Source: Escherichia coli (GTDB taxonomy: Bacteria; Pseudomonadota; Gammaproteobacteria; Enterobacterales; Enterobacteriaceae). Taken from it: a stretch of 64,000 bases of DNA. The stretch lies in the NCBI RefSeq assembly GCF_009931435.1, contig NZ_CP043414.1; one strand, 5' to 3'. A program made the translations under genes and the position numbers. The notes beneath the pieces were generated by a model that did no database searches, was not told where the DNA came from, and saw nothing but the letters and a program-made list of their open reading frames with translations. This document shows positions 698 through 37,815 of the stretch, piece after piece. Position 1 is the stretch's first letter. Each line of letters begins with the position of its first letter.

Positions 698-2538
698 TTA
701 TTGCGACTGCCGGACACGTTGACCACGGCAAAACGACCTTATTGCAGGCGATTACTGGCGTAAATGCCGATCGTCTGCCGGAAGAAAAAAAGCGCGGCAT
801 GACCATCGATCTCGGCTATGCCTACTGGCCGCAGCCGGATGGTCGTGTTCCGGGTTTTATCGACGTTCCCGGTCATGAAAAGTTTCTTTCCAACATGCTG
901 GCGGGCGTCGGGGGTATCGATCACGCGCTGTTGGTGGTGGCGTGCGATGACGGCGTGATGGCACAGACTCGTGAGCATCTGGCGATTTTGCAGCTGACCG
1001 GTAACCCGATGCTGACAGTGGCGCTGACCAAAGCCGATCGCGTGGACGAAACGCGTGTTGATGAAGTTGAACGCCAGGTAAAGGAGGTGCTGCGGGAATA
1101 CGGTTTTGCTGAGGCAAAACTGTTTATCACCGCAGCAACCGAAGGCCGGGGAATTGATGCCCTGCGCGAGCATCTGCTTCAGTTACCAGAACGTGAACAC
1201 GCCAGCCAACATAGCTTCCGCCTCGCTATCGACCGTGCTTTTACCGTAAAAGGTGCCGGGCTGGTCGTCACCGGTACGGCGTTAAGTGGGGAAGTGAAGG
1301 TAGGCGATTCACTCTGGCTGACTGGTGTAAATAAACCGATGCGCGTGCGTGCGCTGCATGCGCAAAATCAGCCAACAAATGCAGCTCATGCCGGGCAGCG
1401 TATTGCGCTTAACATCGCGGGTGATGCGGAAAAAGAACAGATTAACCGTGGGGACTGGTTGCTTGCCGATGCGCCGCCGGAGCCGTTTACGCGGGTGATA
1501 GTCGAGCTTCAAACTCATACACCGTTGACCCAGTGGCAGCCGCTGCATATTCACCACGCCGCCAGCCACGTTACGGGACGCGTTTCGCTGCTGGAAGATA
1601 ACCTTGCCGAGTTGGTGTTCGACACGCCGCTGTGGCTGGCAGATAACGATCGCTTAGTGCTACGCGATATCTCGGCCCGCAACACGCTGGCGGGGGCGCG
1701 CGTGGTGATGCTTAACCCGCCGCGTCGCGGTAAGCGTAAGCCGGAATATCTGCAATGGCTGGCGTCTCTTGCACGGGCGCAGAGCGATGCCGATGCGTTA
1801 GCTATTCATCTGGAACGCGGAGCGGTTAACCTTGCTGATTTCGCCTGGGCGCGCCAGCTCAACGGCGAAGGGATGCGTGAACTGCTGCAGCAACCGGGCT
1901 ATATTCAGGCCGGTTACAGCTTGCTGAATGCACCGGTTGCCGCTCGTTGGCAGCGGAAAATTCTCGATACCCTGGCGACTTATCATGAGCAGCATCGCGA
2001 TGAACCAGGTCCTGGGCGCGAGCGTCTGCGGCGCATGGCGTTGCCAATGGAAGATGAAGCGCTGGTGCTGTTGCTGATTGAAAAGATGCGCGAAAGCGGC
2101 GACATCCTCAGTCATCACGGTTGGCTGCATCTGCCGGATCATAAAGCGGGATTCAGCGAAGAGCAGCAGGCTATCTGGCAAAAAGCGGAGCCGCTGTTTG
2201 GTGACGAGCCGTGGTGGGTGCGTGACCTGGCAAAAGAGACGGGAATCGACGAGCAGGCAATGCGTTTGACGCTACGCCAGGCGGCCCAACAGGGGATAAT
2301 CACTGCGATCGTCAAAGATCGTTATTACCGTAACGATCGGATTGTCGAATTTGCCAATATGATCCGCGATCTCGATCAGGAATGTGGTTCAACCTGCGCG
2401 GCGGATTTCCGCGATCGCTTAGGCGTAGGCCGAAAGCTGGCAATTCAAATTCTGGAATATTTTGACCGTATTGGCTTTACGCGTCGCCGTGGAAATGATC
2501 ATTTATTGCGCGACGCATTATTATTTCCAGAAAAATAA
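694..2538 (+). CDS. selB: Selenocysteine-specific translation elongation factor
   Basis: 614-aa ORF; N-terminal GTPase P-loop [11 protein letters not shown] and DVPGHEKF motifs; start overlaps selA stop. Confidence 0.93.
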
Positions 2539-2598
2539 GGGAACGATTAATTCATAATAAATATGAATTAATACAAAGTTCTTATTAATGTTAAGGAA

Positions 2599-2630
2599 GC
2601 ACGTTATTTGATGAATGTAACGTGCTTTTT
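2599..2630 (+). terminator. Putative rho-independent terminator after selB
   Basis: Inverted repeat gcacgtta...taacgtgc followed by a T5 run. Confidence 0.45.
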
Positions 2631-2727
2631 ATTAAAAATATTTTAATAAACGGTAATGTTGATCATATTTTCAAATGAAAATCCTCAGTAAGCTGCCGGC
2701 CCTTTTTTACTCTTTCAGGAGTGTGTT

Positions 2728-3879
2728 ATGGCAGCTTCAACCTTTTTTATTCCTTCCGTGAATGTTATTGGTGCTGATTCATTGAATGATGCAATGAATA
2801 TGATGGCAGATTATGGATTTACCCGTACCTTAATTGTCACTGACAATATGTTAACGAAATTGGGTATGGCGGGCGATGTGCAAAAAGCACTGGAAGAGCG
2901 CAATATTTTTAGCGTTATTTATGATGGCACCCAGCCTAACCCAACCACGGAAAACGTCGCCGCAGGTTTGAAATTACTTAAAGAAAATAATTGCGATAGC
3001 GTAATCTCCCTGGGCGGTGGTTCTCCGCACGACTGTGCAAAAGGTATTGCGTTGGTTGCAGCTAACGGCGGCGATATCCGCGATTATGAAGGCGTTGACC
3101 GCTCTGCAAAACCGCAGTTGCCGATGATCGCCATCAACACCACGGCGGGTACGGCATCAGAAATGACCCGTTTTTGCATCATCACCGATGAAGCACGTCA
3201 CATCAAAATGGCGATTGTGGATAAGCACGTCACTCCGCTGCTTTCTGTCAATGACTCCTCGCTGATGATCGGTATGCCGAAGTCACTGACCGCTGCAACG
3301 GGTATGGATGCCTTAACGCACGCTATCGAAGCGTATGTGTCTATTGCCGCCACGCCGATCACCGACGCTTGCGCACTGAAAGCGGTGACTATGATTGCCG
3401 AAAACCTGCCCTTAGCCGTTGAAGATGGCAGCAATGAGAAAGCGCGCGAAGCAATGGCTTACGCTCAGTTCCTCGCGGGTATGGCGTTCAACAATGCGTC
3501 TCTGGGTTATGTTCATGCGATGGCGCACCAGTTAGGTGGTTTCTACAATCTGCCGCACGGTGTATGTAACGCCGTTCTGCTGCCGCACGTTCAGGTATTC
3601 AACAGTAAAGTCGCTGCTGCACGTTTGCGTGACTGCGCTGCCGCGATGGGTGTTAACGTGACAGGTAAAAACGACGCGGAAGGTGCAGAAGCCTGCATCA
3701 ATGCCATCCGTGAACTGGCGAAGAAAGTGAATATCCCGGCAGGCTTGCGTGACCTGAACGTGAAAGAAGAAGATTTCGCGGTACTGGCGACCAATGCCCT
3801 GAAAGATGCCTGCGGCTTTACTAACCCGATTCAGGCAACTCACGAAGAAATTGTGGCGATTTATCGCGCGGCGATGTAA
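2728..3879 (+). CDS. yiaY: Iron-containing alcohol dehydrogenase family protein
   Basis: 383-aa ORF; Fe-ADH family hallmarks (GGGSPHD motif, His-rich metal site HAIEAY/HAMAHQ); SD-like GGAG upstream; synteny. Confidence 0.9.
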
Positions 3880-4079
3880 TCATCATTCCCACAATGGCTG
3901 GCTAATTGTCAGCCATTTTTTCAACTCTCTCAAAATTTGCGATTTTTGAGAGAGTTTTAGTTATCTCTGTAATCCTTGCCCGTAAATTCGTGATAGCCGT
4001 CGTAAAGCTATCACCAGCTGGCGAAGATTTCGCCAGTCACGTCTACCCTTGTTATACCTCACACCGCAAGGAGACGATC

Positions 4080-5664: not shown

Positions 5665-5895
5665 TTCGCGTTTTACCAATTCAAATGTCTACGTCTTGAA
5701 TGACTGAATATTGATTGAACTTAATTACGAGTCTCCTCGCATCTTTTCAACAAGTTACTGCACACCGTTATTCTTCTTCCGAACGGCATTCCTGAGTCAA
5801 CTTTATCCCCCTGACGGCCCATATAAATCGCGCTATCGTGATTGTTATTGCTAAATGTGTGTGTGTCGTGTGTATAATCATGGAAGGGCAGGGAT

Positions 5896-6081
5896 GTGAA
5901 AAGTGCAGACGTGATCGCCATCCTGAAGCAGCATGGCTGGGAACATATTCGAACCCGTGGTAGTCATCATCAGTTCCGCCACCCTGTTCATCCGGGTCTG
6001 GTGACGGTTCCGCACCCTAAAAAAGATATTAAGCCCGGTACGCTGGCGCAAATTGGGCGTCAGGCTGGTTTAACATTTTAA
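5896..6081 (+). CDS. HicA-family mRNA interferase toxin (predicted)
   Basis: 61-aa ORF with GTG start; motif RTRGSHHQFRHP and C-terminal PHPKKDIKPGTLAQIGRQAGL resemble the HicA/YcfA family; 16 nt upstream of a HicB-like ORF; TATAAT at 5873-5878. Confidence 0.6.
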   Translation: MKSADVIAILKQHGWEHIRTRGSHHQFRHPVHPGLVTVPHPKKDIKPGTLAQIGRQAGLTF

Positions 6082-6097
6082 AATTTCAGGAGGCAAT

Positions 6098-6508
6098 ATG
6101 TTTTATCCCGCCTATATCCACAGTGATCCTGACGGCAGCGCCAGCGGTTTTTTCCCTGATGTTCCAGGCTGTTATTTTGCTGGTGATACGCTGGACAACG
6201 CTTTCCAGGATGCGCGAAGTGCACTGGTCGCGCACTTCGAAACCTTATGCGAGATGAATGAAGAGTTGCCGCTTCCAGGCTCTGTGGAAACACATCTGGT
6301 CCAGCGTGCGCAGGACTTTATTGGCGGGCAATGGTTGCTGGTGGATATCAATATGAATCAGTTCGAAGGTCGGGCTGAACGTATCAATATTACGATGCCG
6401 AAAAGATTACTGAACAAGATTGATACCTACGTGCGCAATAACCCAGACTACGCCAACAGAAGTGCGTTTCTGGCGGAAGCTGCCCGGCGTGTATTGCCGG
6501 GCGTTTAA
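6098..6508 (+). CDS. HicB-family antitoxin with C-terminal ribbon-helix-helix domain (predicted)
   Basis: 136-aa ORF; N-terminal HicB-like fold signature (YPAYIHSDPDGSASGFFPDVPGCYFAGDT...ELPLP); C-terminal RHH-like segment INITMPKRLLNKIDTYV...NRSAFLAEAARRVL; SD AGGAGG 6 nt upstream of ATG. Confidence 0.6.
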   Translation: MFYPAYIHSDPDGSASGFFPDVPGCYFAGDTLDNAFQDARSALVAHFETLCEMNEELPLPGSVETHLVQRAQDFIGGQWLLVDINMNQFEGRAERINITMPKRLLNKIDTYVRNNPDYANRSAFLAEAARRVLPGV

Positions 6509-6840
6509 TCTCGCGTTTCGATGGTGAGCGGGCGGACCAGGCTGTACAGCCACAGACCAAAACAAGCGATGGTGCCAATCACCACGGTGAGGAACACACT
6601 GACTGACAGGCCTGCAAGCAATCCCGCAGGCAGGGCCAGCAGGCCGTGGATCACGGTGTCGTTCCATCTCACCTGATCGTAGCCAAACATGCCTAAAACG
6701 CCGCAAACCAGACCGTAAATCACCATTGGTGTTCCGAGGCCAATCAGCAATAAACGGTAGATAATTGAAGGTTTAATACGCTTTATCTGTACTGTGGATG
6801 TTTTACTGGGGTTATTCATTAGTTTGGTCAATAGTTCCAT
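6505..6840 (-). CDS. Hypothetical small inner-membrane protein (two or three predicted TM helices)
   Basis: 111-aa product from ATG at 6840 inside a 127-aa ORF; hydrophobic stretches IIYRLLLIGLGTPMVIYGLVCGVLGMF and LLALPAGLLAGLSVSVFLTVVIGTIACFGLWLY; convergent with the hicB-like gene and overlapping its 3' end by 4 nt. Confidence 0.4.
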   Translation of the reverse strand: MELLTKLMNNPSKTSTVQIKRIKPSIIYRLLLIGLGTPMVIYGLVCGVLGMFGYDQVRWNDTVIHGLLALPAGLLAGLSVSVFLTVVIGTIACFGLWLYSLVRPLTIETRD

Positions 6841-7001
6841 TATTTCAATATGATAAACCTCGACCTGTTGAAAAGCCAGGTAGCACACTTCAGAAAGTAT
6901 ATAAAAAACAATATGTCGTTATATAAATAAGGAAATTGCACTGCATCATGGCATTTCATAATATGCGTTAATTGTTCTTTTTTATATTCTCTGAGGGAAA
7001 T

Positions 7002-7325
7002 ATGTTCCTGGACTATTTTGCACTGGGAGTGCTTATTTTTGTATTTCTGGTGATATTCTATGGGATTATTATTTTACATGATATTCCCTACCTGATTGCT
7101 AAAAAACGTAATCATCCTCATGCCGACGCCATTCATGTTGCTGGTTGGGTGAGTCTTTTTACGCTGCATGTTATCTGGCCATTTTTGTGGATTTGGGCCA
7201 CGCTTTACCGCCCGGAGCGGGGATGGGGAATGCAAAACCATGACTCCTCCGTTGTGCAACTACAACAGCGTATTGCCGGGCTGGAGAAACAGCTCGCCGA
7301 CATCAAATCCTCTTCTGCCGAGTAA
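7002..7325 (+). CDS. yiaW: Small inner-membrane protein (DUF3302 family)
   Basis: 107-aa product from ATG at 7002 with GAGGGAAA SD; membrane helices; immediately followed by yiaV. Confidence 0.85.
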
Positions 7326-37648: not shown

Positions 37649-37815
37649 ACGTTATCCCCTGCCTGACCGGGTGGGGGATAATTCACATCTATATATATCA
37701 GTAATTAATTAATATTTAGTATGAATTTATTCTGAAATCATTTGTTAATGGCATTTTTCAGTTTTGTCTTTCGTTGGTTACTCGTAATGTATCGCTGGTA
37801 GATATGGAGATCGTT

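Follow-up and report, generated by a model that had tools for sequence, protein, structure and literature searches.

High-affinity binding sites of H-NS, for example those at proU and cspA, share the motif tCGATAAATT, to which footprinted sites score between 5.5 and 9 of 10 (Lang et al. 2007, PMC2094087). The palindrome described here, located between selB and yiaY, resembles such sites in its AT-rich sequence with central TpA steps, in belonging to an H-NS-bound region and in having a neighbouring gene silenced by H-NS and StpA; unlike the palindrome, the H-NS motif demands no strict dyad, no fixed 9-bp gap and no C:G pair. Dyad operators, including distal counter-silencer sites such as that of SlyA at fimB (PMC3173223), have in common with the palindrome conserved inverted half-sites, a fixed spacing, a free centre and a location in an H-NS-bound region, far upstream by the placement proposed below, whereas the palindrome comes without a known cognate protein or a second site, has half-site centres 18 bp apart and is contained in the transcribed 3' end of the preceding operon. 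Intrinsic terminators and the stabilising hairpins of 3' UTRs are likewise hairpin-forming elements of a 3' UTR, but the palindrome lacks both a U-tract and covariation and contains a single G:C pair.

We analyzed a 64-kb stretch of DNA (hereafter the window) from an Escherichia coli-like genome, containing the genes selA'-selB-yiaY-aldB. The selB-yiaY spacer is 189 nt long (2539-2727) and 71% AT, and RefSeq genomes matching positions 2400-2760 annotate selB and yiaY on either side of it. The features of the locus are listed below in window coordinates.

2536-2538, + strand: stop codon TAA of selB (ORF 694-2538; selB annotation in matching RefSeq genomes).
2543-2552, + strand: match ACGATTAATT to the H-NS motif (8/10 to the published tCGATAAATT).
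2546-2572, no strand: palindrome with perfect 11-bp arms and a 5-nt spacer (sequence and inverted-repeat search).
2546-2554, no strand: left conserved half-site ATTAATTCA, without variation in 14 sequences from Escherichia (window-type allele) and the C. freundii complex.
2555-2563, no strand: central 9 bp, TAATAAATA in the window, fixed in length and variable in sequence (8/9 columns vary among the 14 sequences).
2564-2577, no strand: right conserved half-site TGAATTAAT with the conserved extension ACAAA (cross-genus alignment).
2594-2630, + strand: intrinsic terminator hairpin of selAB, followed by a T-run (RNA fold and covariation; core stem 2597-2606 / 2618-2627).
2653-2670, + strand: conserved block with GATCATATTTT (2660-2670), a putative -35 or activator region of the yiaY promoter (conservation and motif scan).
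2689-2694, + strand: putative -10 hexamer of yiaY, TAAGCT (TATGCT in Citrobacter), proposed from its conservation pattern.
2728-3879, + strand: yiaY, encoding an iron-type alcohol / L-threonine dehydrogenase (ORF and RefSeq annotation).

The palindrome had been described, in a sequence-only reading of this DNA, as an 11-bp inverted repeat starting 8 nt past the selB stop codon and lying upstream of a separate terminator hairpin. Both descriptions were borne out: 7 nt separate the stop codon from the first base of the palindrome, the arms ATTAATTCATA (2546-2556) and TATGAATTAAT (2562-2572) are 100% complementary around ATAAA, and the downstream hairpin is a real terminator, with a core stem of 8-10 bp and a T-run after it. 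The further description of the repeat as entirely AT is wrong by one pair, C2553:G2565, which is the one C:G pair in the palindrome and belongs to its conserved core. AATT and TpA steps are found in each arm. Across orthologous loci, the palindrome starts at the 8th nt past the selB stop, except in two loci where the offset is 5 nt.

A search of the window for perfect inverted repeats (arms ≥11 bp, loops ≤10 nt) gave 9 places, as compared to 0.45 expected from Markov-1 simulations. The palindrome is the sole AT-rich one among them, the other eight being G+C-containing, terminator-like hairpins. When sequences of 189 nt were simulated at the composition of the spacer, the probability of obtaining at least one such repeat was 0.0036. 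Since a genome with thousands of spacers would yield a handful of these repeats by chance, the case for more than chance rests on conservation.

We scanned one genome per species using the SelB C-terminus, yielding 80 loci. The yiaY gene was located 3' of selB in Escherichia, Citrobacter, Intestinirhabdus, Yokenella, Pluralibacter, Atlantibacter and Franconibacter, and the palindrome was present only at loci with this arrangement. Past the selB stop of Enterobacter, Klebsiella, Raoultella, Leclercia, Kosakonia and others, no such palindrome was found, and G+C-rich hairpins or a convergent gene occupied the position instead. Loci that lack yiaY thus also lack the palindrome past selB, and it belongs to yiaY rather than to selB.

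The C. freundii complex and the window-type Escherichia alleles share a constant arrangement, ATTAATTCA-N9-TGAATTAAT-ACAAA, in which the central nine bases differ by sequence (TAATAAATA, GAAATCAAA, GGAATTAAA, TATAAAACA, TGGATTAAA and others). Variable columns among the 14 sequences amounted to 0/18 in the arms, 8/9 in the central spacer and 96/162 (59%) in the rest of the spacer region, and pairwise comparison of the window with C. freundii-complex species gave 18/18 identical positions in the arms, 3-6/9 in the centre and 92-94/162 (~57%) in the rest (Fisher p ~1e-4; for C. braakii, 18/18, 3/9 and 92/162), these arm-versus-spacer counts and the Fisher test ignoring shared ancestry and the contrast between arms and centre lying within the same sequences. 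No stretch of invariant columns in the spacer region was longer than ATGAATTAATACAA (2563-2576). Between Escherichia and Citrobacter, nothing in the selB-yiaY spacer is conserved better than the two outer 9-bp arms. This alignment shows the functional unit to be ATTAATTCA-N9-TGAATTAAT(ACAAA), with arms of 9 + 9 bp, and the perfection of the arms over 11 bp belongs to one E. coli allele. Partial decay of the palindrome was seen in the more distant Citrobacter amalonaticus, sedlakii, R56 and NCU1 as well as in E. albertii, and TTAATACAAAA was retained even in the decayed alleles of the K-12 type and of Citrobacter R56. In C. amalonaticus S646, an insertion of ~140 bp, partly G+C-rich, is located between the decayed palindrome and the terminator (locus ~3180-3320).

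These data bear on the reading that the palindrome has no function of its own, being a chance product of an AT-rich spacer whose conservation derives from the neighbouring block AATTAATACAAA or from slow local divergence. AT-only DNA is self-complementary at half of its positions, and the same spacer holds another perfect AT palindrome, with 10-bp arms, at 2628-2650 (TTTATTAAAA-ATA-TTTTAATAAA, directly after the terminator T-run); over 120 metagenome contigs of low GC and unrelated origin also carry the exact 18-base pattern of the half-sites, and the intact form has been lost from most E. coli without obvious cost. We nevertheless consider this reading very improbable, as the arms are invariant in two genera while the central 9 bp and 59% of the other columns vary, and as a perfect 11-bp repeat is rare at the composition of the spacer (the P value given above). 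At the position aligned to 2628-2650, the C. freundii complex has another palindrome, TGTTATTAAAATAACA (8/10 to the CRP consensus), and K-12 has none.

To describe the alleles within E. coli, we used the exact 33-mer 2545-2577. Of 5426 complete E. coli genomes, 1262 (23%), ST131 strains included, carry it as a single copy without annotation. With one place per genome in 1262 genomes, the element does not behave as a dispersed repeat of the REP or MITE kind. The other 77% of complete genomes lack the intact element; K-12, O157:H7 and E2348/69 carry a decayed allele (ATTAATTAAGTTTTAAAATAAATTAAT or ATTAATTAATTTTTAAAATAAATTAAT) in which the outer 7 bp of each arm are kept, TTCA has changed to TTAA and TGAA to TAAA. 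Conservation in close relatives, the check proposed together with the initial description, gave a divided answer: Citrobacter and 23% of E. coli genomes retain the palindrome, and it is decayed in the remaining E. coli, K-12 among them. The spacer exists in E. coli as two deeply diverged alleles, with 82-84% identity in the spacer versus 93-96% in the flanking genes; for the window and K-12, the values are 82% in the spacer and 93-94% in the coding DNA on either side.

Several rearrangements and differences were noted at the same locus. The whole selB-yiaY stretch of the window is ~7% diverged from K-12, which is unusually far. In E. coli ETEC1701 (locus 3145-3900), an IS1 is found immediately past selB, the 3' end of selB is altered, and the spacer and yiaY through part of yiaN are missing; judging from this arrangement, the deletion that removed the palindrome looks IS1-mediated. 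In E2348/69 (locus 5794-7089), a Fic-family gene is located between yiaY and aldB and yiaT-yiaW are absent; the window has no such gene.

We then compared covariation in the palindrome helix and in the terminator helix over the same 21 aligned sequences. In the terminator helix, 98.6% of cells were paired, with compensatory changes at 4/10 pairs; in the palindrome helix, 84% were paired, only 2/11 pairs showed any double change and 5/11 departed by mismatch only. The two innermost pairs of the 11-bp arms formed in 12/21 and 8/21 sequences. The terminator stems of the two E. coli alleles themselves differ by compensatory changes (GCACGTTA/TAACGTGC versus GCACATTG/CAATGTGC). Because the arms of the palindrome stay identical or break while a terminator stem 25 nt away covaries, the pattern favours sequence-specific recognition of double-stranded DNA over a selected RNA stem.

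In energetic terms, the RNA hairpin of the palindrome is predicted at -8.3 kcal/mol for the window (z = -7.2) and at -6.0 kcal/mol for C. werkmanii, and the -0.5 kcal/mol obtained for the K-12 allele does not improve on shuffled sequence. Folding of 2530-2640 gave -29.3 kcal/mol (z = -6.8) with a minimum-free-energy structure that includes the palindrome hairpin. The sequence-only reading had preferred a protein-binding site to an RNA stem, and this preference is supported by the conservation of the arms, the variable centre of fixed length and the near absence of compensation next to a covarying terminator. On paper, the predicted hairpin is not negligible. The palindrome was also rejected as an intrinsic terminator: it has one G:C pair and is followed 3' of the stem by ACAAAG rather than by a U-tract, and it is the hairpin at 2594-2630 that qualifies.

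A hairpin in the 3' UTR of selAB could still act at the RNA level, on translation termination, on RNAP pausing, or on mRNA stability or processing upstream of the terminator. The region is transcribed within selAB as far as the terminator, the hairpins of the window and of C. werkmanii have the energies given above, that of the window forms part of the predicted fold of 2530-2640, and the distance from the selB stop is constant. This reading is nonetheless quite improbable in our view, given that departures break pairing in the very sequences in which the adjacent terminator compensates, that 77% of E. coli carry the decayed allele, whose K-12 version barely folds, and that the absence of the palindrome after selB where yiaY is absent means that it is not a feature of selB. 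The stem, moreover, consists of 10 A:U pairs and one G:C pair without a U-tract and has no Rfam match; an Rfam scan of 2000-3200 by E-value gave chance-level matches only.

To place the locus in the context of H-NS binding, we scored the spacer against the published motif. The match ACGATTAATT shares the core CGATTAAT with the footprinted cspA site CCGATTAATC (Table 1, PMC2094087), and further matches of 7/10 were found on the reverse strand (TGTATTAATT) and in Citrobacter (ACAATTAATT). The CG flank of the match is not conserved in other lineages.

In MG1655, H-NS ChIP-chip regions extend over 3,755,059-3,756,664 under aerobic and 3,755,039-3,757,215 under anaerobic conditions (Table S3, PMC3688515), a size of 1.6-2.2 kb which, in a strain with the decayed allele, does not single out the palindrome. 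These tables use version-2 coordinates, as confirmed by a peak listed within ttdR that fits this gene only after adding 1,977, and we converted the version-3 positions of yiaY and selB by subtracting 1,977. The K-12 spacer (3,755,851-3,756,039, version 2) lies inside both regions, and the midpoint of the aerobic region falls at the start of yiaY. Wild-type K-12 does not transcribe yiaY under standard conditions (PMC12369378), and the gene is oxygen-regulated only in Δhns ΔstpA MG1655, with a fold change of 0.15 (Table S11, PMC3688515). Ler, an antagonist of H-NS, raises yiaY 5- to 9-fold in EPEC E2348/69 (PMC3891560), and the yiaY gene of Shigella flexneri shows a ~9-fold, FNR-dependent anaerobic induction (PMC4229854). 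In K-12, the spacer is an H-NS/StpA-silenced control region. As K-12 is still H-NS-bound and silenced with a decayed allele, H-NS can occupy the locus without the exact arms.

Other features of the surrounding region were recorded. An IHF ChIP-chip peak at 3,756,423-3,756,791 (K-12 version 2; Table S4, PMC3688515) is located ~400-750 bp upstream of the selB stop, inside the H-NS-bound region. Seven GATC sites are found within ~110 bp (2307-2413) at the 3' end of selB, where a high-density cluster of Dam sites has been described at which, in Δdam, the RNA polymerase signal goes up and protein occupancy goes down, with no known binding protein (PMC12369378).

Apart from the palindrome, conservation in the spacer is found at the terminator, at GATCATATTTT (2660-2670), at GTAAGCTGCC (2688-2697) and at the ribosome-binding site. 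Escherichia, Citrobacter and Intestinirhabdus all keep GATCATATTTT, in which there is a Dam site, as well as GTAAGCTGCC; a weak yiaY promoter probably has its activator/-35 part in the former and its -10 part in the latter. Within TAAGCT/TATGCT, the genera differ at positions 3 and 4 and agree at T1, A2, C5 and T6, a mostly -10-like pattern. In a motif scan, the 14-mer GTAATGTTGATCAT of the 2653-2670 block matched the FNR consensus at 7/10, with only its ATCAT half conserved; a yiaY start near 2701 would put this 14-mer at -41.5 and the centre of the palindrome near -142, upstream of the selAB terminator. A simple promoter scan of 2300-2900 gave no sigma-70-like site at threshold and none overlapping the palindrome, the tables of PMC3688515 list neither an FNR ChIP peak nor a predicted FNR site near yiaY, and no start or promoter data for yiaY were found in the supplements of PMC3064808 and PMC8282354. 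In C. freundii-complex loci, a sequence one mismatch from the FNR consensus, TTGATTGAAATCAG, lies ~50 nt past the selB stop, just 5' of the terminator stem, and is not found in Escherichia; the site of anaerobic control may be at different places in Escherichia and in Citrobacter.

The palindrome had also been suggested to be part of the yiaY promoter. That it would belong to the core promoter, as -35/-10 elements or as an immediately adjacent operator, accords with its presence in the only spacer upstream of yiaY and with the fact that it travels with yiaY, and is hardly credible otherwise: a terminator supported by covariation stands between the two, so that a transcript starting at the palindrome would meet it, no sigma-70-like hexamer pair covers the palindrome, and the promoter-like blocks are at 2653-2694, 100-140 bp downstream by our placement. 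The putative position near -142, 5' of the selAB terminator, likewise speaks against a core promoter element.

Taken at the DNA level, the palindrome may be a dyad that serves as a nucleation site for H-NS-family proteins or as a counter-silencer site, ~140 bp upstream of the putative yiaY promoter; we favour this reading tentatively, with slightly less than even confidence. Its 9-bp half-sites (ATTAATTCA and TGAATTAAT), in inverted orientation and at a constant distance of 9 bp within a short AT-rich selB-yiaY island, would form a high-affinity entry point for H-NS-family proteins or for a protein competing with them. From there, a silencing complex would spread over a weak, activator-dependent yiaY promoter ~100-140 bp downstream, and its release, for which Ler in EPEC and the loss of H-NS/StpA are known routes, would unmask the anaerobic induction of yiaY. 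In this scheme, the dyad as the bound site, the identity of the binding protein and the position of the promoter are all inferred. On the side of H-NS nucleation, there are the 8/10 motif match, the low-resolution occupancy in K-12 and the H-NS-dependent silencing reported in the literature. Counting against an H-NS-family protein are E2348/69, where Ler acts on a strain with the decayed allele, and the 77% of E. coli genomes that do without the intact element. An allele-specific response to Ler was discarded for the same strain, which was expected to be intact and carries a decayed, O157-like allele.

The H-NS motif does not explain the strictly conserved inner TCA/TGA, the sole C:G pair included, which is better suited to a dedicated dimeric regulator. 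Taken with the decayed alleles of K-12 and E2348/69, it agrees with such a regulator, or with a counter-silencer, about as well as with the favoured reading. As an operator, the element has half-sites conserved in two genera (14 sequences), a spacing that is always 9 bp and a variable centre. The alternative that it is the operator of a dedicated, putative dimeric transcription factor (repressor, activator or counter-silencer) controlling yiaY, decayed where the factor or the regulation was lost, is one that we regard as possible and rather unlikely. Invariant inverted half-sites with exact spacing and a free centre are a classic operator signature, both half-sites lost their C in the K-12-type allele, as relaxed selection after the loss of a partner predicts, and distal counter-silencer sites at -150 to -200 are known, such as that of SlyA at fimB (PMC3173223). 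On the other hand, none of the known motifs compared fits in orientation, spacing and key bases, the motif was not found in an enterobacterial context in the literature searched, no second site was detected among related loci, the palindromic form of the one similar site in the window is not conserved, and half-site centres 18 bp apart are unusual for a helix-turn-helix dimer. In its furthest form, a proposal that we hold only as a doubtful one, the dyad would date back to the common ancestor of Escherichia and Citrobacter and be the operator of a putative regulator or counter-silencer specific to yiaY, a cryptic gene for an anaerobic dehydrogenase; its decay in about three quarters of E. coli, together with the unusually divergent two-allele spacer, would be a natural regulatory polymorphism that alters when yiaY escapes from H-NS.

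The yiaY gene is, from published data, one of many lab-silent E. coli genes, held off by H-NS/StpA and otherwise anaerobically induced, and a conserved 27-bp dyad with natural intact and decayed alleles offers a cheap handle on the nucleation or release of silencing. Beyond this handle on yiaY, it is a single-locus regulatory site of a familiar type.

Known motifs were compared to the palindrome by scanning or by eye against consensus sequences, the comparisons by eye serving as leads rather than tests. ArgR, FNR, CRP, Fur (7-1-7), NsrR half-sites, Cra, MetR, EvgA, NagC/Mlc, ArcA, IHF, Fis, Lrp and Xer/dif all failed on orientation, spacing or key bases. For FNR (TTGAT-N4-ATCAA) and CRP (TGTGA-N6-TCACA), scan matches over the intact palindrome have 2-3 mismatches and are not conserved. 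The pentamers ATTCA and TGAAT are common to the palindrome and to ARG boxes, but those of ARG boxes face inwards and those of the palindrome outwards (ATTCA-N9-TGAAT). A pair of ARG boxes (TGAAT-N4-ATTCA, 21 bp centre to centre) was discarded on this account: the pentamers are everted, the implied boxes would be 23 bp apart and the outer halves are absent (GAACG 1/5, ACAAA 2/5).

String searches of the literature with the half-sites, 12-mers and "TTCA-N9-TGAA" retrieved only Vibrio HlyU and LuxR sites, plus primers. HlyU is a Vibrio protein of the ArsR/SmtB family that relieves H-NS silencing, and it is not known to have a homologue in E. coli or Citrobacter. HlyU operators (TAATTCAGACTAAATTA; PMC4330345) are AT-rich, have half-sites very similar to those of the palindrome (TAATTCA / TAAATTA) and are located ~164 bp upstream of the promoter; their spacer is 3 bp as compared to 9 bp in the palindrome, and the likeness, coming from a string match, is a lead rather than a test.

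We also searched for further copies of the dyad. In 434 kb of related loci, no second copy with up to 3 mismatches was found beyond the selB-yiaY position. The only other match to ATTAATTCA-N9-TGAATTAAT in the window was ATTAATTAATATTTAGTATGAATTTAT (37704-37730), in the xylB-yiaB spacer, with 2 mismatches, where 0.02 were expected from whole-window shuffles. This site was rejected as evidence for a shared factor (a regulon), as E. fergusonii, E. albertii, C. freundii and C. amalonaticus keep its right half and the sequence downstream, and not the palindrome. With its right side, ATG(A/G)ATTTATTCTGAAA, kept across E. fergusonii, E. albertii and Citrobacter, the site suggests that yiaB is preceded by a conserved element other than the dyad.

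A metagenome scan with the exact 18-base pattern returned mostly unrelated low-GC organisms, and 11 of the 13 matches on contigs of at least 49% G+C were this same locus; the scan brought no new context. At least 10 contigs (~35% G+C), most of them from sample Ga0105103, carry a longer dispersed palindromic repeat, AACCCG-ATTAATTCATAAACTTTATGAATTAAT-CGGGTT, often with a conserved flank caccttatattttcttggtcgcaag; these repeats form a family in an unrelated organism of low GC and share the 27-mer pattern by happenstance.
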